DNA of 64,000 nt from a virus (lineage: Duplodnaviria; Caudoviricetes). Below, piece after piece: positions 3,618 to 43,762 of this stretch. The DNA is taken from positions 364,321 through 428,320 of the IMG/VR virus record IMGVR_UViG_3300014208_000023. One strand, written 5' to 3'. The position numbers and the translations under genes are program-made. The first letter of the stretch is position 1. Each line of letters begins with the position of its first letter. Below the pieces are notes generated by a model. It did no database searches. It was not told the DNA's origin and saw only the letters and a list, made by a program, of their open reading frames with translations.

Positions 3618-5279
3618 TTATCCTATGAATTTATGAAACTTATTTTTCTTACAGAAAGCCTTCCATTCCGAAGGAGAGCAATTTGCTTCCTCAAGAAGAC
3701 TCAACCAATCTGGCTGCTTGAAAATTTCCTTATCCAAGGAGTTTGCTAGCGCCAAAAGCTCAGTCAGTTTTGCTTTCTTTTTGGCCTTTGATTTAAAGCA
3801 GGTTAAAGATGGATCCATCTTCATTTCTGTTTTAATTTCTTCGATTCTATCCTTGCGAGTCTTTTCAAGCTCGACGGCAATTAATTCATTCACCTCTTTG
3901 GTGGTGAGGTTCGGATTTTCTTCCTTAATCTTAATGATTGCGTTTGCTTTGGCTAGCTGATATCTGGTGCTTTTATTTCTCTCACGGTAATCTGCGAGCG
4001 TTTTTTGCAGATTTCTAATTGGAGTTTGCTCCTGATATGCCATTCTTCTGCCCTGCTCAACTCCCATTAAGAATAGTAGGCGCATGACAACATCGAACAA
4101 AGAACGATCGTATTTTTCCTTCTCACGCTTAAGGAACTTTTCAGTAAAATGCTCTTTAGCTGGAGGAAAAATCTTCTTCTCCTGCTTGCCAAGCTCATAT
4201 CCGTTATAATCGAATTTCCATTCGTTAGCGTTTCGGATAAGACGATAACCCTTTTCTAGAATGTTCTTGAAAGGAGCAAAGACATCATTGTATAATGCAA
4301 GCTCGTCTGGCTCATCAGACCACTGCTTTACTTTATTTTTATCTTCGACTTTCTCTTCAAGTTTCTCATCAACATGACGCTCGGCCGCATTGACAATAAC
4401 AATTGGAGACGGCGCAACGCTAGACGCTTCTTGCGTAACTGGCCGCATTGGCGTATTGTTTTCTACATATTCCATAGGTTTTGCTTCATTACTCTTACTG
4501 CGAACGGAATGTTCTACCTTTGATAGCGCCGCGTCGTTAAGATAATAATATTCTTCGCCATTTGGTAGGACCACCGCCGGCCCATCTAGCCTATGGCGTT
4601 TATTATTAACGAACCATTCTTTTGTTCCGTCAAGCCAAACTCTTGCTGGACCAACAGGATTATGAATCATATCGTTGATGCGGTGAAGGTGCAGTAGCTC
4701 CTTACCCATTCTTGGGGGACTAGCCTTTAGCGCCTTGGCTCTAGCTCTCCAAAGAACTTCTGGTTCCGTAGAAGGTTTGCCCATCCAATGCCACGCCACT
4801 ATGGCTTTACCATTAATTGGAGATTTTCTCTCAATAGCGGGCCCATCTTCTCGATGTAGATTGCCCATGTAATACCATTTTGTAGTGCCGTTTATTAACG
4901 TTACTGCCGGAGCGCCTTCGCGATGAAGTTTTCCCTCGAAATACCATAGGGTATCTCCGCAGGATCTAATCACTGCTGGACCATCTGCTCTATGATTCAA
5001 GTTATTGACGTAATATTCTTTGGTGCCGCTAGCGTATTCTACGGCAGGAAGAGAATTGTCTCTATGACGTTTGCCGTGGCGCCACCATTCAGTGGAACCA
5101 TCAGCATGAATGATTGCTGGTCCGGTATCAAAATGAGTTAGTTTATCGGCATCAACGTGTCTAACGGCCGGCTTAAGGCCCGGAATGTCATATACCGAAT
5201 CGCTTGGCGTTGAGCTTCTTACGTCTTCGACCATTCCTAGACGATCTACGAAAGCGGATAGTGACATTCCCTTGTTCAT
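3618..5279 (-). CDS. HR(E/D)DGPA-repeat protein with C-terminal coiled domain
   Basis: Repeated HRADGPA/HREGAPA/HREDGPA/HRLDGPA beta-hairpin units common in large phages and giant viruses. Confidence 0.8.
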   Translation of the reverse strand: MNKGMSLSAFVDRLGMVEDVRSSTPSDSVYDIPGLKPAVRHVDADKLTHFDTGPAIIHADGSTEWWRHGKRHRDNSLPAVEYASGTKEYYVNNLNHRADGPAVIRSCGDTLWYFEGKLHREGAPAVTLINGTTKWYYMGNLHREDGPAIERKSPINGKAIVAWHWMGKPSTEPEVLWRARAKALKASPPRMGKELLHLHRINDMIHNPVGPARVWLDGTKEWFVNNKRHRLDGPAVVLPNGEEYYYLNDAALSKVEHSVRSKSNEAKPMEYVENNTPMRPVTQEASSVAPSPIVIVNAAERHVDEKLEEKVEDKNKVKQWSDEPDELALYNDVFAPFKNILEKGYRLIRNANEWKFDYNGYELGKQEKKIFPPAKEHFTEKFLKREKEKYDRSLFDVVMRLLFLMGVEQGRRMAYQEQTPIRNLQKTLADYRERNKSTRYQLAKANAIIKIKEENPNLTTKEVNELIAVELEKTRKDRIEEIKTEMKMDPSLTCFKSKAKKKAKLTELLALANSLDKEIFKQPDWLSLLEEANCSPSEWKAFCKKNKFHKFIG

Positions 5280-5560: not shown

Positions 5561-5634
5561 TGGTGACCGACCCAGGGCACGAATCTGGATTACCTTACCG
5601 AAGTAAAGCGTTCTAATCATTAAACTAGTCGGCC
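5561..5634 (-). ncRNA. tRNA-Glu-like RNA with UUCG tetraloop anticodon arm, copy 1 (CCA encoded)
   Basis: GGCCGAC TA GTTT AATGATTA GAAC G CTTTAC TTCG GTAAGG TAAT CCAGA TTCGTGC CCTGG GTCGGTC A CCA. Confidence 0.85.
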
Positions 5635-5635
5635 G

Positions 5636-5709
5636 CAGTGACCCTCCCAGGGAACGAGCCTGGATTACCTTACCGAAATAAAGTGTTCTATTCATTAAAC
5701 TAGAGGGCC
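5636..5709 (-). ncRNA. tRNA-Glu-like UUCG RNA, copy 2
   Basis: GGCCCTC...CTTTAT TTCG GTAAGG TAAT CCAGG CTCGTTC CCTGG GAGGGTC A CTG; 1 nt from copy 1. Confidence 0.85.
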
Positions 5710-5764
5710 GTAAAGCATACTTGGAACACTAGGTATGCGAGCTAATAAAATCTAAATTGTTCCT

Positions 5765-5838
5765 TGGTGACCTGTCCAGGGATCGAGTCTGGATTACCTT
5801 ACCGAAGTAAAGCGTTCTGAACATTAAACTAACAGGCC
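5765..5838 (-). ncRNA. tRNA-Glu-like UUCG RNA, copy 3 (CCA encoded)
   Basis: GGCCTGT TA GTTT AATGTTCA GAAC G CTTTAC TTCG GTAAGG TAAT CCAGA CTCGATC CCTGG ACAGGTC A CCA. Confidence 0.85.
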
Positions 5839-5847
5839 GTAACTGAA

Positions 5848-6087
5848 TTATGAATCTTTACCCCACGCCCAAATAGCCCTAACATACATTACCATTATGA
5901 AAATGGACATAACAACCAATGCCATAGAGTGGGTCATTAGTCCCCACGCTACCCACATTGATTCTGCAATCAATGCGATATAGAAACCAACCTTCTTTTT
6001 ATCTCCAATTAAAGAGAGTGCGATAAGTAGAAGTATGCAGCCGCCCCAAGAAAGAATGTTTGGAACGGTGAAAATTGAATTAAACAT
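5848..6087 (-). CDS. small multi-pass membrane protein (PnuC/SWEET-like fragment)
   Basis: 79 aa, three hydrophobic segments with W/G pattern. Confidence 0.65.
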   Translation of the reverse strand: MFNSIFTVPNILSWGGCILLLIALSLIGDKKKVGFYIALIAESMWVAWGLMTHSMALVVMSIFIMVMYVRAIWAWGKDS

Positions 6088-6110
6088 ATTTGCCTTTAAC
6101 TAATTGTTAG

Positions 6111-6183
6111 TTGGGGATATAGGACTCGAACCTATAACTCGCGGATTCAAAGCCCGCTACTCTGCCAGTTGAGTTAATCCCCA
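6111..6183 (-). tRNA. tRNA-Gln(UUG)
   Basis: TGGGGAT/ATCCCCA acceptor (U1-A72), GCGGG CT TTG AA TCCGC, T-loop TTCGAGT. Confidence 0.92.
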
Positions 6184-6284
6184 ATAAGAGGAAATGCATC
6201 ACTTAGTGATTGAGGATTTGATCCCTTAACAATTCCAATGCTACATTTTTATAGGTTTATATAGCGAACCATTTGTGTGCAAAT

Positions 6285-6450
6285 CGGTTTTGGAGGCCGA
6301 TCTGCACTTTTTACTGGTTTTGCAGGCCAACCAGCCAACCTAGATCGGGCTCCACTACTTTATCGCTCTGGTCCTTTTTGGTAGAGTTTAGGTGCTTCAT
6401 TGCCCTCTTTGTTTGTATTCCGAACCAGAGAAGCAGGCCTCCAAAAACGG
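6285..6450 (-). ncRNA. candidate structured ncRNA (multi-branched, about 165 nt)
   Basis: 11-bp closing helix 6288-6298/6436-6446 plus inner helices 6366-6374/6422-6430 and 6314-6319/6329-6334; strand assumed from neighbours. Confidence 0.5.
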
Positions 6451-6495
6451 ACATCTGCCTTACGCTTTGAGTCCGCCCGTTGGAGCGTAAAAACA

Positions 6496-6569
6496 TAGTG
6501 ACCTGTCCAGGGAACGAGCCTGGATTTCCTTACCGAAATAAAGCGTTCTGATCATTAAACTAACAGGCC
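6496..6569 (-). ncRNA. tRNA-Glu-like UUCG RNA, copy 4
   Basis: GGCCTGT...CTTTAT TTCG GTAAGG AAAT CCAGG CTCGTTC CCTGG ACAGGTC A CTA. Confidence 0.85.
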
Positions 6570-6576
6570 TAAATTG

Positions 6577-6762
6577 TTATCCGATAACCACGTACTCTTT
6601 GCCATTAGCAATTTCTTCACAAGTCCCGCCCTTGGTGTAAGGGTTTCCCATTGGTGTCACTCCGGTGCATATGGATGCGTCTTCGGAATCTGCCGAATAC
6701 GTGATGACTAGTGCGTCTTGGTTACACTTCAAGAGCTTTGCAACAATTTCTGATACTTTCAT
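6577..6762 (-). CDS. hypothetical protein between tRNA-like copies 4 and 5
   Basis: 61 aa, MKVSEIVAKLLKCNQDA phage-type N-terminus. Confidence 0.65.
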   Translation of the reverse strand: MKVSEIVAKLLKCNQDALVITYSADSEDASICTGVTPMGNPYTKGGTCEEIANGKEYVVIG

Positions 6763-6792
6763 TTTTTTTCTTTTCTTTCATTTTAGTAGCGT

Positions 6793-6866
6793 TAGTGATC
6801 CTCCCAGGGAATGAGCCTGGATTACCTTACCGAAATAAAGTGTTCTATTCATTAAACTAGAGGACC
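6793..6866 (-). ncRNA. tRNA-Glu-like UUCG RNA, copy 5
   Basis: GGTCCTC/GAGGATC acceptor (compensatory U3-A70), CTTTAT TTCG GTAAGG. Confidence 0.85.
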
Positions 6867-7171
6867 TAAAGATTTATTTCCTCAATGATGGTGAGGTTGT
6901 TATTTTCTTTTTTATAGAGAAGAAGGCTGTTAGCATTGATTTTTTCATTAAGAAAAAGAAGCTTAATTTTCTCACATGTAAGCTTGAATTTCAAAATTAA
7001 GAAATATTCATTTGCAAGAATGTTAATGTTATTTTCTTGCAACAGTCTTTCTAAGTCAAGATTATTGTTTTGGCGAGTGTCAGTTGTTAGGGAAGATTTG
7101 TAACGACTTATAAAGTCGCGCGCGGCTTCTAACGTGTATTCTCCAGTGAAAAATGGTCTATATAAAATCAT
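6866..7171 (-). CDS. hypothetical protein between copies 5 and 6
   Basis: 101 aa, AT-rich; shares TLEAAxx(F/W)I motif with 7254-7574. Confidence 0.7.
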   Translation of the reverse strand: MILYRPFFTGEYTLEAARDFISRYKSSLTTDTRQNNNLDLERLLQENNINILANEYFLILKFKLTCEKIKLLFLNEKINANSLLLYKKENNNLTIIEEINL

Positions 7172-7176
7172 GTTTT

Positions 7177-7249
7177 TAGTGACCCGTCCAGGGATCGAAT
7201 CTGGATTACCTTACCGAAGTAAAGTGTTCTGGCATTAAACTAACGGGCC
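7177..7249 (-). ncRNA. tRNA-Glu-like UUCG RNA, copy 6
   Basis: GGCCCGT TA GTTT AATGCCA GAAC A CTTTAC TTCG GTAAGG TAAT CCAGA TTCGATC CCTGG ACGGGTC A CTA. Confidence 0.85.
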
Positions 7250-7253
7250 GTAA

Positions 7254-7574
7254 TTATATCTTAAATTCTTTTACTATTTCAACTTCTAGGCCACCAAAAG
7301 GAATGCGTTTGGTACGGACGATATATATCGTATCTCCCGTAATCGATTGTGCGCGGGCCAGTCTATCTAAAGCGTCACACTTTGCCGTAGCTCTAACTAT
7401 GAAGCCATAGCCAAGTGCTCCTATAGATTTAGTTGAATTAATGATTTCAGTCATAGAGGTCGCGTTGGATAACGCTGGCGCTATATTAAAATAGCCCCTA
7501 TTCTTCCTTATCCAAGATTCGGCGGCTTCTAGCGTTTTTAGTGACGATAAACTATAACTGGCATATATAAACAT
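7254..7574 (-). CDS. hypothetical protein between copies 6 and 7
   Basis: 106 aa; ATG directly follows the CCA of copy 7. Confidence 0.7.
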   Translation of the reverse strand: MFIYASYSLSSLKTLEAAESWIRKNRGYFNIAPALSNATSMTEIINSTKSIGALGYGFIVRATAKCDALDRLARAQSITGDTIYIVRTKRIPFGGLEVEIVKEFKI

Positions 7575-19560: not shown

Positions 19561-21285
19561 TCACTTACCTAGCGTATTCTTGGCAACCCAAAGGCAGGCT
19601 ACTACGTTTAGCATTGCCCAGACACGCATAATAAGAGTACCAAAGACGAATTGAGACTCACCTAGCCAAGCGGTCTGCATTAGATATGCAGCAGTTCCAA
19701 TTGCCAGACCACCAGCAAGAGCCCGGAAAACTGGACGATGGAAACCAACGGCAACCAGAGAAAATGCCGGAAGAACGTTTGCGAGAGGAAGCCAGCTATG
19801 AAGGCTAGTATGCCAAACTAGATCCCACTCTCCAAGAGGACGAGAAAGAAGCTCTCCTAGCCAACGGAAGCTGCCCATGTAATTAAGGGCTCCGACGAAC
19901 GGAAGGAAGAATAGAGCGCCTACGGATGCCACGACTGCCGCAACTCCAGCCACAATCTGCGAGCGTCCGGCAAGTAGTGTCTTGTTATTCTTCTTTAGAA
20001 CCGTAAGAAGAACGAATGCAAAGAAAGCTAGGAATCCTACCCTATAGATGATGTGCTTCATAAAGACCGATGACGTAGCACTTTCTGCGTTTAGAATGCC
20101 GGCGCCGAACTTTGAGGCATCCTGTTTTTCAACTGCACTGCCCTGAAGGATTTCTAGAACCTTATCAGGATCAGTAACTCCCTGAGACATAATTAGCGCG
20201 GCGGCGGCACTAACATGAGGGGTAGCCATTGAGGTGCCATTGAACGGAGAGAACTGTCCCTGTCCCTTACCACCCTCTGAAATAGTCTGCTGAGTGACTG
20301 CAACTCCGGGAGCCGAAATAGCCACTTCCTTGCCCCTTGAAGAGAAGGTTGCAAGATTATCGCCCTGATCCGAAGCCGAGACGGCTACGCATCCCTTGTT
20401 TGCGGCGGGATAACCAACTGAACCGCCAGAATTACCAGCGGCACACGAAAGGAAAACTCCCTTACTGTGAGCATACTTTACTGCCTTGGCTACAACGGCA
20501 CTGTCCGCGCTTGAACCAAGCGAAAGACTGATGACGTTAGCTCCATGATCGGCAGCCCAAACAATGCCTTCTGCAACTCCGGCCATTGTCCCAGAGCCAG
20601 ATGCCGAAAGAACCTTCACTGGCATAAGCCGAACACAATGCGAAAGCCCGGCGACACCAATACCATTATTGGTAACTTGAGCAACCGTTCCGGCACAATG
20701 ACTTCCATGTCCCTGGTCGTCATGCGGTGGCTGACCTGGAGAAACGAAATTGTAACCAGGAACGAATGCTGCTTCCTTTAGATCCGAAAGGACCTTGAAC
20801 CCATTCGTCTCTTCTGCCGTAATGCCGGTATCAACTACCGCAACGGTAACTCCCTGTCCGCAAGAATACTTCCATGCAGTAGGGGCGCCAACACGTTCCA
20901 TGTGCCACTGATCCTTATACTGCGGATCATTTGGAGTATAAAGAGCGTGAGCCATAAGAAGAGGCTCTGCAACTTCAACCCTAGGATCGTGAGCCATACG
21001 AGAAAGAACCTGATTCTCCATCTGAGGATCTACCATAGCAACGGCGATGTTGCCAAGATGGTGAGATTCAGGCGAATTGTCTCGGATAACAATCCCATAA
21101 TCTTTACCAAGCTGCTCGATATCGGCAGCAGTAAGGTTGTCAGCAAGGTCAAGCTCCATCTGACCCGGAACAACATCTCCAACAACGGAAGTTGGATCAA
21201 CCTCTGTTGGAAGGAAGTTGCTCTTTGGTTCGCTACAACCAATAAAAGCCATAGCAAGCAGTGGCAGAATCATTTTCATGCGCAT
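19561..21285 (-). CDS. S8 subtilase with lipoprotein-type signal and C-terminal multi-TM domain
   Basis: VAVVDTG, DDQGHGSHCAG, AAGN, NGTSMATPHV triad; N-terminal AFIGC; several C-terminal TM helices. Confidence 0.92.
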   Translation of the reverse strand: MRMKMILPLLAMAFIGCSEPKSNFLPTEVDPTSVVGDVVPGQMELDLADNLTAADIEQLGKDYGIVIRDNSPESHHLGNIAVAMVDPQMENQVLSRMAHDPRVEVAEPLLMAHALYTPNDPQYKDQWHMERVGAPTAWKYSCGQGVTVAVVDTGITAEETNGFKVLSDLKEAAFVPGYNFVSPGQPPHDDQGHGSHCAGTVAQVTNNGIGVAGLSHCVRLMPVKVLSASGSGTMAGVAEGIVWAADHGANVISLSLGSSADSAVVAKAVKYAHSKGVFLSCAAGNSGGSVGYPAANKGCVAVSASDQGDNLATFSSRGKEVAISAPGVAVTQQTISEGGKGQGQFSPFNGTSMATPHVSAAAALIMSQGVTDPDKVLEILQGSAVEKQDASKFGAGILNAESATSSVFMKHIIYRVGFLAFFAFVLLTVLKKNNKTLLAGRSQIVAGVAAVVASVGALFFLPFVGALNYMGSFRWLGELLSRPLGEWDLVWHTSLHSWLPLANVLPAFSLVAVGFHRPVFRALAGGLAIGTAAYLMQTAWLGESQFVFGTLIMRVWAMLNVVACLWVAKNTLGK

Positions 21286-22496: not shown

Positions 22497-22570
22497 TAGT
22501 GACCTGTCCAGGGATCGAGTCTGGATTACCTTACCGAAGTAAAGCGTTCTGAACATTAAACTAACAGGCC
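22497..22570 (-). ncRNA. tRNA-Glu-like UUCG RNA, copy 8
   Basis: Identical to copy 3 over 76 nt (22499-22574 vs 5767-5842); ends CTA instead of CCA. Confidence 0.85.
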
Positions 22571-22708
22571 GTAATGACACTTACTTATAGTGTCGAAGCG
22601 GTTTATTTTGACGTTAATAAACAAAACGTATAGACAACCAGGCTATAACTGAGGCATATTTCATTCCAATGATGCCAGCGGAATCTTCTTATCATGGGAT
22701 GGAAAGAA

Positions 22709-32896: not shown

Positions 32897-33991
32897 TCAT
32901 TTAATCCCAAGCTTGTAAAAAACTCGCGTATAGGGCTTGAAGATATGGTGCGTCGGAACAACTCCAACACTCTTCCAGGCTTCGCGAACTGCCTTATACT
33001 CTACACCAGTTCCGTAAAGCTCAATGGCGGTTTGAGTAGTGGCGTCCGCCATCTCCTTGAAATTGGAGCGCTCATTAAGCTTTGGTCCGGTAAGGGTCTC
33101 ATACCAGATTTTGCCAGTCTTTTCCCAGGCATAACCGCCGATATTGATCGCCGCCTCGTGGAAGGCCTTGTTAGGAATGCCGGAGTTGATATGGACTCCA
33201 CCATTGTCGTCTCCTCCAGTGTAAAGATCCTTCATGTGGGCCGGCTGACGATCCTTGCCGATGACCTTATCGTCATAAGCAGTGCCAGGCGCTTTCATAG
33301 AACGAATACCTACTCCGTTAATCTTATCGGTGAATAGACCTTCACCGATAATCCAATTGGCTTTATCAGCAGTCTGATTGCCAACGTGCTGTTTTACCAG
33401 CGATCCGAACACGTCAGAGAAGTGTTCATTAAGGGCTCCAGACTGGCCATAATATTCCAGTCCAGCCGTGTGCTCCGTTACACCATGAGTAAGCTCGTGG
33501 GCAACAACATCTAGAATTGTGAAGGGATTGAAAATCTCACCATCACCGTCGCCATAAGTCATCGAGCGTCCATTCCAAAACGCATTGGGATACTTGTGGC
33601 CAAAATGGACTGTCGAATGAAGGTGGAATCCCTTGTTATCAATTGAGTCTCGCTTGAAAAACTTCCTGAAGAACTCGTGGGTATGGCCAGAGAAATCATA
33701 AGCCTCATCAACCTGCTTGTCGCCCTTTGACCTCGTGCCTTCTTCTCGAACTACCTTACCAGGAAGAGACTGGCGATTCTCTGCATCATAGACCGTCCTG
33801 GCAATCTGGCCAGCTCTGCTGAGATACGGATCGGTATTACGTTCGGCCTTAAACCTTCCATCTGCCGCTCCTTCATTAAGGAGGAGGCCGGGAACATCAG
33901 AAATGAGGGGCTGAATAAAAAGCTTTCCAATTTCGGCAGGGGCATTGGCGAAAATAGTGCGAGCCATATACGAAGGAATGATTAGACACAT
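32897..33991 (-). CDS. M4 metalloprotease, protealysin type
   Basis: N-terminal CLIIPSYM propeptide, NAFWNG, VAHELTHGV, GALNEHFSD, DNGGVHINSGIPN. Confidence 0.93.
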   Translation of the reverse strand: MCLIIPSYMARTIFANAPAEIGKLFIQPLISDVPGLLLNEGAADGRFKAERNTDPYLSRAGQIARTVYDAENRQSLPGKVVREEGTRSKGDKQVDEAYDFSGHTHEFFRKFFKRDSIDNKGFHLHSTVHFGHKYPNAFWNGRSMTYGDGDGEIFNPFTILDVVAHELTHGVTEHTAGLEYYGQSGALNEHFSDVFGSLVKQHVGNQTADKANWIIGEGLFTDKINGVGIRSMKAPGTAYDDKVIGKDRQPAHMKDLYTGGDDNGGVHINSGIPNKAFHEAAINIGGYAWEKTGKIWYETLTGPKLNERSNFKEMADATTQTAIELYGTGVEYKAVREAWKSVGVVPTHHIFKPYTRVFYKLGIK

Positions 33992-40025: not shown

Positions 40026-40112
40026 TGGCTCACTGGGCAGGGATCGAACCTGCGTTAGGATTGCTCCGTTACGGGTTAACAGCCCGCTGCCTGGCCTCTA
40101 GGCTACCAGTGA
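40026..40112 (-). tRNA. tRNA-Asn(GUU) with long (17-nt) variable arm, CCA encoded
   Basis: TCACTGG/CCAGTGA G CCA; GCGGG CT GTT AA CCCGT; variable AACGGAGCAATCCTAAC. Confidence 0.85.
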
Positions 40113-41717: not shown

Positions 41718-41801
41718 TGGTGGGACGTGATTGATTCGAACAATCTTCCGTTAAAAGACCAGTTGTACAATCTGGTAGCTTGCCATCAGCCCATACGTCC
41801 C
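41718..41801 (-). tRNA. tRNA-Tyr(GUA), atypical anticodon arm, CCA encoded
   Basis: GGGACGT/ACGTCCC A CCA; CCAGA TT GTA CA ACTGG (A31.A39 mismatch, C37); long variable arm. Confidence 0.75.
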
Positions 41802-43670: not shown

Positions 43671-43683
43671 AAATTTTTATTCG

Positions 43684-43762
43684 TGGAGCGTGAGGGAGTC
43701 GAACCCCCTAAGCAAAAAGCAGAGATTTACAGTCTCCTGTCCGACCGTTGGACTTACACTCC
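43684..43762 (-). tRNA. tRNA-Tyr(GUA)
   Basis: GGAGTGT/ACGCTCC A; GGAGA CT GTA AA TCTCT. Confidence 0.88.

Follow-up and report, generated by a model that had tools for sequence, protein, structure and literature searches.

The window, a 64,000-nucleotide stretch of DNA, forms the end of a virus record that is 428,320 bp long (direct terminal repeats; 39.7% G+C). It carries eight copies, all of them within the window, of a 72-nt tRNA-shaped repeat in which a UUCG tetraloop replaces the anticodon loop. Short ORFs alternate with these tRNA-like repeats, or mimics, and their AUGs lie close behind the mimic ends. The spacer that separates mimic copy 4 from a tRNA-Gln gene is 315 nt long, compared with 1–40 nt for the other junctions between cassettes of the array. 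All genes, tRNAs, and tRNA-like repeats neighboring this spacer lie on the minus strand, and we therefore take the minus strand as its transcribed strand. The features discussed below are collected in Table 1.

The window has further contents of note. The mimics (5563-7652 and 22499-22574, minus strand) are approximately 80% identical clade-wide (L055, L057, L062, L063, L068, and L074), and their core pattern matched nothing in IMG/VR outside its own record. ORF start codons lie 1–40 nt past the mimic 3′ ends, often without a Shine-Dalgarno sequence. A full-length RtcB RNA ligase gene (61000-62217, minus strand; Pfam E = 2e-129) shares the window with the tRNAs and mimics, and a more distant relative, L060, carries an RNA ligase and a metallophosphatase adjoining GluRS. 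A 553-aa repeat protein (3618-5279, minus strand) has close homologs only in the megaphage clade (45–69% identity), together with hundreds of weaker matches bearing Pfam PF20530, and is the best marker for locating relatives. The phage also encodes, all on the minus strand, a ClpB-like AAA+ chaperone (10256-12652), a subtilase of family S8 (19561-21285), and a thermolysin-like M4 peptidase (32897-33991). Among the ARAGORN calls on the same strand are one tRNA-Asn (87 nt) and two tRNA-Tyr (80–84 nt), located at 40026-40112, 41718-41801, and 43683-43762; the tRNA-Asn is longer than usual, so that an insert or a miscall is possible.

Table 1. Positions in the window of the spacer, its flanking tRNA-shaped genes, and the elements predicted within it.
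Feature	Positions	Strand	Basis or remark
Whole conserved non-coding spacer RNA, 315 nt	6184..6498	-	Copy 4 3′ end to tRNA-Gln 5′ end
Upstream tRNA-like repeat copy 4, UUCG tetraloop	6499..6569	-	Rfam tRNA model, 41.3 bits; repeat family D1
tRNA-Gln(UUG)	6110..6183	-	ARAGORN and Rfam, 63.2 bits
61-aa ORF, judged spurious	6311..6496	-	Codon usage, homolog search, relatives
H1, ~11-bp hairpin from invariant UAUG; loop mostly invariant including GGCGGACU	6456..6495	-	87–92% paired
H2, local two-part hairpin	6419..6451	-	93–94% paired; same fold predicted in all four sequences
H3, small hairpin with invariant CCAAAAAGGA core	6365..6387	-	Helices 7-8 of the chain
H5, 6-bp hairpin CUGGUU/AACCAG of the original prediction	6313..6335	-	87.5% paired
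H6, 11-bp hairpin; loop is the closing-helix 3′ strand (CCUCCAAAA)	6277..6307	-	Six pairs change on both sides
H7, 7-bp hairpin, then conserved CAUUG	6240..6265	-	Three pairs change on both sides
H8, closing helix and two inner hairpins	6190..6236	-	100% paired; four pairs changed on both sides
Invariant CUCUUAU immediately 5′ of tRNA-Gln (all four lineages)	6184..6190	-	Leader, presumed RNase P site
Kink-turn domain, encloses H3	6346..6406	-	Both flanking helices covary; UGA and opposite-strand G-A invariant
Drum-like module: P1, kink-turn, P2, GGUU linker, P3 hairpin, A-rich tail	6309..6405	-	RF02958
First arm of the 11-bp closing helix, own lineage only	6288..6298		65% paired; 0 pairs changed on both sides
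Second arm of the 11-bp closing helix, own lineage only	6436..6446		Perfect pairing with 6288-6298

Part of this spacer had been described, in the original prediction, as a candidate 165-nt multi-branched RNA in which an 11-bp helix encloses a 9-bp helix and a 6-bp hairpin. The pairings themselves were largely recovered. The closing helix is present as a perfect match between TTTTGGAGGCC at 6288-6298 and GGCCTCCAAAA at 6436-6446, with the span given one base off, and the 6-bp hairpin CUGGUU/AACCAG is present as well. The 9-bp helix forms in full on the minus strand, where it includes one G-U pair, and not on the plus strand, where that pair becomes a C-A mismatch; for this reason, and given the orientation of the genes, the minus strand is the relevant one. 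The 166-nt stretch folds on the minus strand at -54.5 kcal/mol (z = -2.9), with none of 200 shuffles folding as well, and gives z = -2.3 against shuffles on the plus strand. After regression on G+C content, it ranks 123rd among 1278 stretches of the same size, and its thermodynamic stability is thus unremarkable for this genome. The window contains 8 sites with perfect inverted repeats of at least 11 bp within 200 nt, compared with a mean of 3.6 in shuffles; the 11-bp inverted repeat is close to chance frequency, and the sequence features of the prediction exceed chance only weakly.

We turned to relatives to judge what is conserved. IMG/VR holds no close relative, and a clade of megaphage contigs was reached by searches with GluRS and the 553-aa protein. 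Within IMG/VR, searches for relatives with the 61-aa ORF, the closing-helix pattern, the mimic core, the 553-aa neighbor, and GluRS gave nothing useful, and neither did two motif patterns of the element. Several candidate matches were set aside: two IMG/VR matches of an element motif pattern fell by chance inside a G+C-rich coding region, the ClpB relatives in IMG/VR were only ~40% identical and without the element, eight metagenome matches to the mimic core were short chance matches, and two matching contigs from bacterial MAGs (Pirellulales and Tepidisphaeraceae) showed no further similarity and were likewise attributed to chance.

Within the megaphage clade, three further lineages carry the spacer. 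It measures 330 nt in L063 (a 422-kb contig, identical in L064 and L067), 333 nt in L068 (a 431-kb contig from an NCBI assembly, identical in L069 and L070), and 305 nt in L055 (a 249-kb contig); by BLAST, the segments from mimic to tRNA-Gln are 78%, 74%, and 61% identical, respectively, to that of the window. The order mimic, spacer (305–333 nt), tRNA-Gln is kept in all four lineages. In the window, the predicted RNA does lie between tRNA-Gln and mimic copy 4, as had been stated. More distant GluRS-bearing contigs (L058 and L060–L062) have a different gene order and no copy of the spacer, and the contigs of L057, L073, L074, and L076 end before the element. A tRNA-Arg(TCG) call in L063 proved to be merely another mimic copy. 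A profile built from the four spacers finds a single copy per genome, with no further copy in 1.15 Mb of fetched loci plus the phage genome.

The spacer is more conserved than its protein-coding neighbors. Its first 135 nt are 82.5% identical to L063 and 84.9% to L068, compared with 80.8% to each for the tRNA-like element, 68.7% and 67.7% for the gene of the 553-aa protein and 64.9% and 57.3% for that of the 87-aa protein; counting clear orthologs only, the flanking 553-aa, 87-aa, and 79-aa genes span 57–70%. Invariant columns are not spread evenly along the spacer: they cluster in the H1 loop (GGCGGACU), a CAGAU, the kink-turn, the H3 loop (CCAAAAAGGA), the GGUU linker, and the final CUCUUAU.

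The tRNA-Gln(UUG) downstream compares differently between lineages. That of the window is 89% identical to its counterpart in L063 and ~65% identical to that in L068 (3912-3983), where a tRNA-Met follows directly after it. It seems that an exchange affected the tRNA-Gln gene and left the spacer in place.

Conservation of this kind could reflect a small protein or leader peptide. A 61-aa ORF does start from an AUG 3 nt past the tRNA-like element, as the neighboring ORFs do after their mimics, the UAUG is invariant, and an internal frame of 29 codons is shared by the window and L063 across two 3-nt indels. The frames do not persist further. A 1-nt deletion right behind the AUG shifts the frame in L063 and L068 to a stop after 11 codons, and the frame there that matches the ORF of the window is without an AUG and meets a TGA; in L055, the frame at this site stops after 30 codons. 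The internal frame, for its part, is interrupted in L068, and in L055 it lacks an AUG. Codon usage points the same way: the 61-aa ORF scores 0.006, compared with 0.11–0.17 for four neighboring small ORFs, and a score that low is found for only 1.4% of 61-codon segments taken from real genes, as against 41% of spurious ORFs that score as high. The ORF belongs to no family in Pfam or PHROGs, and a search of 1.84 billion representative proteins returned one marginal match (E = 9e-4, to a 744-aa protein). Given a frame lost in relatives, poor codon usage, and no convincing homolog, the overlapping ORFs are spurious, as had been suspected, and we regard a peptide product as extremely unlikely. Because the relatives share no ORF, on either strand, across the four lineages, the stretch is judged to be non-coding. 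By sequence comparison, then, four megaphage lineages conserve both the position and the sequence of the spacer and have no conserved reading frame in it.

The architecture originally proposed for this RNA did not survive the same comparison. Relatives retain 22–25 of its 48 pairs. In alignment A1, 62.1% of cells are paired compared with 60.5% in shuffles, a level reached by 79 of 500 shuffles, and 6 pairs are changed on both sides compared with 5.9 in shuffles. Collecting homologs, which had been suggested as a check, thus recovered a conserved spacer in three further lineages and no covariation in the closing helix. The fold also competes with local hairpins that are conserved: the 5′ strand of the closing helix falls in H2, its 3′ strand is the loop of H6, and H2 takes up both UUGGAGG, from the proposed 5′ closing strand, and CUCUGG, from the 9-bp helix. 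H3 is the third competitor, and here the substitutions are telling, since its stem CUCU/AGAG becomes UUCU/AGAA in relatives, which leaves H3 intact and breaks the 9-bp helix. The sole conserved helix of the proposed fold is the 6-bp hairpin (H5). Nor are the limits 6285-6450 those of a unit; the conserved unit is the whole 315-nt spacer.

It might be argued that the 165-nt multi-branched RNA is right for its own phage, possibly as one of two conformations. It is the minimum free energy structure of the stretch folded by itself, and the minimum free energy structure of the full spacer retains the 9-bp helix and the 6-bp hairpin. Set against the substitutions in H3, the shuffle-like pairing in relatives, and the near-chance frequency of 11-bp inverted repeats, we find this very improbable; the 11-bp and 9-bp helices are at most an alternative pairing private to one phage. 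A persuasive fold of a single sequence (11 + 9 + 6 bp) was in this case largely wrong once relatives were compared. Overall, the observations behind the original prediction are partly confirmed and its interpretation is partly supported: conserved structure does lie on the strand of the tRNA array, and the particular fold that had been put forward is not conserved.

The structure shared by the four lineages is captured best by a chain of seven or eight predicted local hairpins (H1–H8) with compensatory changes. Across the four sequences, 86.1% of cells are paired, a fraction inflated by deriving the chain block by block from three close sequences. Both sides have changed in 20 pairs (shuffles, 9.4 ± 2.2), and the chain has a covariation score of 0.283 (shuffles, 0.184); these values come from only four distinct sequences, three of them close and the fourth (L055) poorly aligned in the 3′ half. 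None of 500 shuffles reaches the paired fraction, the double-change count, or the covariation score of the chain, and when the 3′ partners were slid by 1–3 columns as a control, 34–50% of cells paired. Folded block by block, the four lineages yield the same predicted hairpins, and this holds for L055 with its differing stem sequences, where support in the 3′ half rests partly on folding each block separately. The block z-scores are all ≤0 in every lineage, with sums of -7.5 to -12.6.

Individual hairpins illustrate how pairing is maintained. The H1 stem is retained in L055, folded by itself, through changes on both sides, and pair 114-134 of H3 is C-G in the window and U-A in L063 and L068. 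The H5 stem reads AUCGGUU/AACCGAU in L063 and AUUGGUU/AACCAAU in L068. At the H6 site, a hairpin is predicted in all four lineages from different sequences (block z of -2.7 to -6.9), and at the H7 site, the stem of L055 is a different one of 6 bp. The H1 loop (GGCGGAC) could form a pseudoknot with GUCCGU just downstream in three lineages, L055 being without the partner. In the region of H8 (6184-6239 in the window), L063 (3758-3827) and L068 (3844-3911) have a 12–14-nt insert with an extra small hairpin and a CUUUCGG-type loop.

Palindromic stems could in principle serve at the DNA level, whether as operators bound by proteins, as an origin, or as a promoter that is specific to the phage and serves tRNA-Gln. 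One near-perfect palindrome of the 3′ block, ATCACT-A-AGTGAT, does not vary among the three close lineages. A scan found no sigma-70-type promoter or intrinsic terminator inside the spacer (6184-6498), and phage promoters may differ from sigma-70 sites, which weakens that negative result. However, the chain contains many G-U pairs, which place the structure on the minus strand: the conserved ones become C-A mismatches on the opposite strand or in a cruciform. In L055, moreover, the stems stay paired even where their sequence has wholly changed, a pattern expected of RNA structure rather than of a sequence-specific DNA site. A DNA element is therefore quite improbable, and a structured minus-strand RNA remains the reading we pursue below.

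At the core of the chain lies what is predicted, at the sequence level, to be a textbook kink-turn of the Kt-7 type. A C helix (6406-6402/6350-6346) and an NC helix (6396-6392/6357-6353) flank an AAU bulge with G·A/A·G pairs (6401-6397 with 6352-6351). The C, the UGA, and the G-A are invariant, and the flanking helices (helices 5 and 6 of the chain) covary. The key positions in the window are C:G at -1b:-1n, A:G at 3b:3n, and G:U at 4b:4n. The relatives keep the G·A/A·G pairs, with 3b:3n being U·G in L063 and L068 and, after realignment, A-U in L055.

This core weakly resembles the drum RNA motif (RF02958). When the core was searched alone against Rfam, drum was the top non-tRNA match, running from 6405 to 6309 (15.3 bits, E = 0.57), and in L055 it was again the top non-tRNA match, at the homologous position (17.8 bits, E = 0.38), both scores being far below the gathering score of 43 bits. 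The two matches share one register: P1, UGAA, P2, GGA, P1′, GGUU linker, P3 (corresponding to H5), and A-rich tail. L063 and L068 gave no Rfam match to drum at E ≤ 10, and a genome-wide covariance search missed the drum-like site. No rho-independent terminator follows the module in 6184-6498; H6 comes next, without a U tract. Since the scores fall so far short of 43 bits, two lineages give no match, and the terminator is missing, we describe the core as drum-like and do not assign it to the drum family.

The likeness to drum extends to several features. The drum motif, described by Weinberg et al. (2017) with a rho-independent terminator at its 3′ end (PMC5737381), has the same order of parts (4-bp P1, a kink-turn with UGAA and GGA, P2, GGUU linker, P3, and A-rich tail), and its kink-turn, which folds in Mg2+ and binds L7Ae, has key positions identical to those of the spacer: C:G, A:G, and G:U (PMC8191799). 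Both are orphan RNAs with highly conserved loops. They differ in that the spacer scores 15–18 bits against 43, with no match in two of the four lineages; in that its P2 is longer and contains H3, and the 3′ terminator is absent; and in setting, since the module of the spacer is part of a 315-nt RNA that has additional hairpins to either side of it, is flanked by tRNA-shaped elements, and belongs to a megaphage. Part of the motif's original description reports an associated neighboring protein family, said to be related to DUF3800-linked genes (PMC5737381). The phage genome has no gene for L7Ae or for a DUF3800 protein.

Comparison with other RNA families gave no assignment. In the Rfam scan, the spacer reaches no family threshold, and wider Rfam searches gave no consistent weak match. 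The absence of tRNA and tmRNA landmarks noted earlier held, with ARAGORN and Rfam finding nothing in 6184-6498, relaxed ARAGORN thresholds producing noise-level calls only, and a scan for intron-containing tRNAs at lowered thresholds finding none in the spacer. The suggested resemblances to Y RNA and 6S RNA were not borne out. Neither family gives an Rfam match at E ≤ 10; a Ro60/TROVE gene is absent from the genome and the terminal stem expected of a Y RNA is not conserved, while short hairpins in a chain make up the conserved structure, and not the long rod with a central bubble of 6S RNA.

The position of the spacer suggests how such an RNA could be made. RNase P cuts the 5′ end of tRNAs, and RNase Z or other nucleases trim the 3′ end. 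Because the spacer lacks an internal promoter and terminator and all its neighbors lie on the same strand, it would be transcribed with them as one long RNA. Its 5′ end would then be set by 3′ processing of tRNA-like copy 4 upstream and its 3′ end by RNase P cleavage at the 5′ end of tRNA-Gln, and we infer from established tRNA processing that a discrete RNA of ~315 nt with defined ends would be released. The invariance of UAUG and CUCUUAU at the two ends of the spacer and the absent promoter and terminator fit such a release.

The same features are compatible with a purely cis-acting processing spacer, which is the main rival to a trans-acting RNA. Its hairpins might order or protect cleavage by RNase P, RNase E, or RNase Z, or stabilize pre-tRNA-Gln, and the spacer would be degraded afterward. 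It does lie directly between two tRNA-shaped substrates, with the invariant UAUG (5′) and CUCUUAU (3′) beside the presumed cleavage sites, and has no promoter or terminator of its own. The strongest conservation, however, is found in internal loops far from those sites, namely the H1 loop, the kink-turn, and the H3 loop, and 315 nt with a kink-turn far exceeds what the other junctions of the array require for their 1–40 nt. We consider an exclusively cis-acting role rather unlikely.

On balance, we think it probable that the 315-nt spacer is a conserved non-coding RNA cassette of the minus strand, released by tRNA processing and acting in trans. The ~315-nt RNA would act as a protein-binding RNA and not as a messenger, riboswitch, or terminator. 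Protein binding and a role in trans are suggested by the kink-turn together with the loops that do not vary, and this is the weakest step of the proposal; the candidate partners L7Ae, Ro60, and DUF3800 proteins are none of them encoded by the phage. A more ambitious version holds that this is a megaphage-specific, drum-related kink-turn RNA, excised from a tRNA-punctuated transcript by the tRNA-processing enzymes of the host, that serves as a protein-binding decoy or scaffold in the conflict between phage and host over tRNAs and RNA-targeting defenses. This elaboration is a long shot; if true, it would place the orphan drum RNA class in a functional context for the first time.

The spacer matters beyond this locus. 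Very large phages carry many tRNAs, and here an array of anticodon-less mimics also punctuates the gene cassettes; the spacer is the sole cassette of that array with a conserved structured RNA in place of a protein gene. If released and stable, it would be a new phage RNA with ends made by tRNA-processing enzymes. Its kink-turn core may link it to drum, a widespread bacterial RNA that has been without a known function since 2017, and a phage context with defined ends would make questions about the function of both the spacer and drum testable.

Among known systems, the stable RNAs species 1 and 2 of phage T4 (rnaD and rnaC) offer a comparable setting. They are small non-coding RNAs of unknown function encoded on the same strand within a cluster of phage tRNA genes, and they are matured from a common precursor by tRNA-processing enzymes. 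The spacer likewise lies within a tRNA array, on the same strand, in all four lineages, and maturation of that kind is what we propose for it. The T4 RNAs are shorter (about 120–140 nt); we know of no kink-turn in them and of no flanks formed by anticodon-less tRNA mimics. Spacer RNAs of tRNA operons and the MALAT1/mascRNA type resemble the proposed RNA in having an end made by RNase P or RNase Z at an adjacent tRNA or tRNA-like structure, and a released spacer of the tRNA-operon type can act in trans. The former are short and poorly structured, the latter are eukaryotic long non-coding RNAs, and to our knowledge none shares sequence or fold with the 315-nt spacer. GOLLD and ROOL, neither of which has an Rfam match in the spacer, are structured non-coding RNAs often found beside tRNA genes and in phages or prophages, and possibly co-transcribed with tRNAs (PMC5737381); they are much larger, at about 580–800 nt, and have unrelated architectures. 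The spacer is most aptly regarded as a new structured RNA cassette, kin to the tRNA-linked stable RNAs of phages and built around a predicted drum-like kink-turn core.
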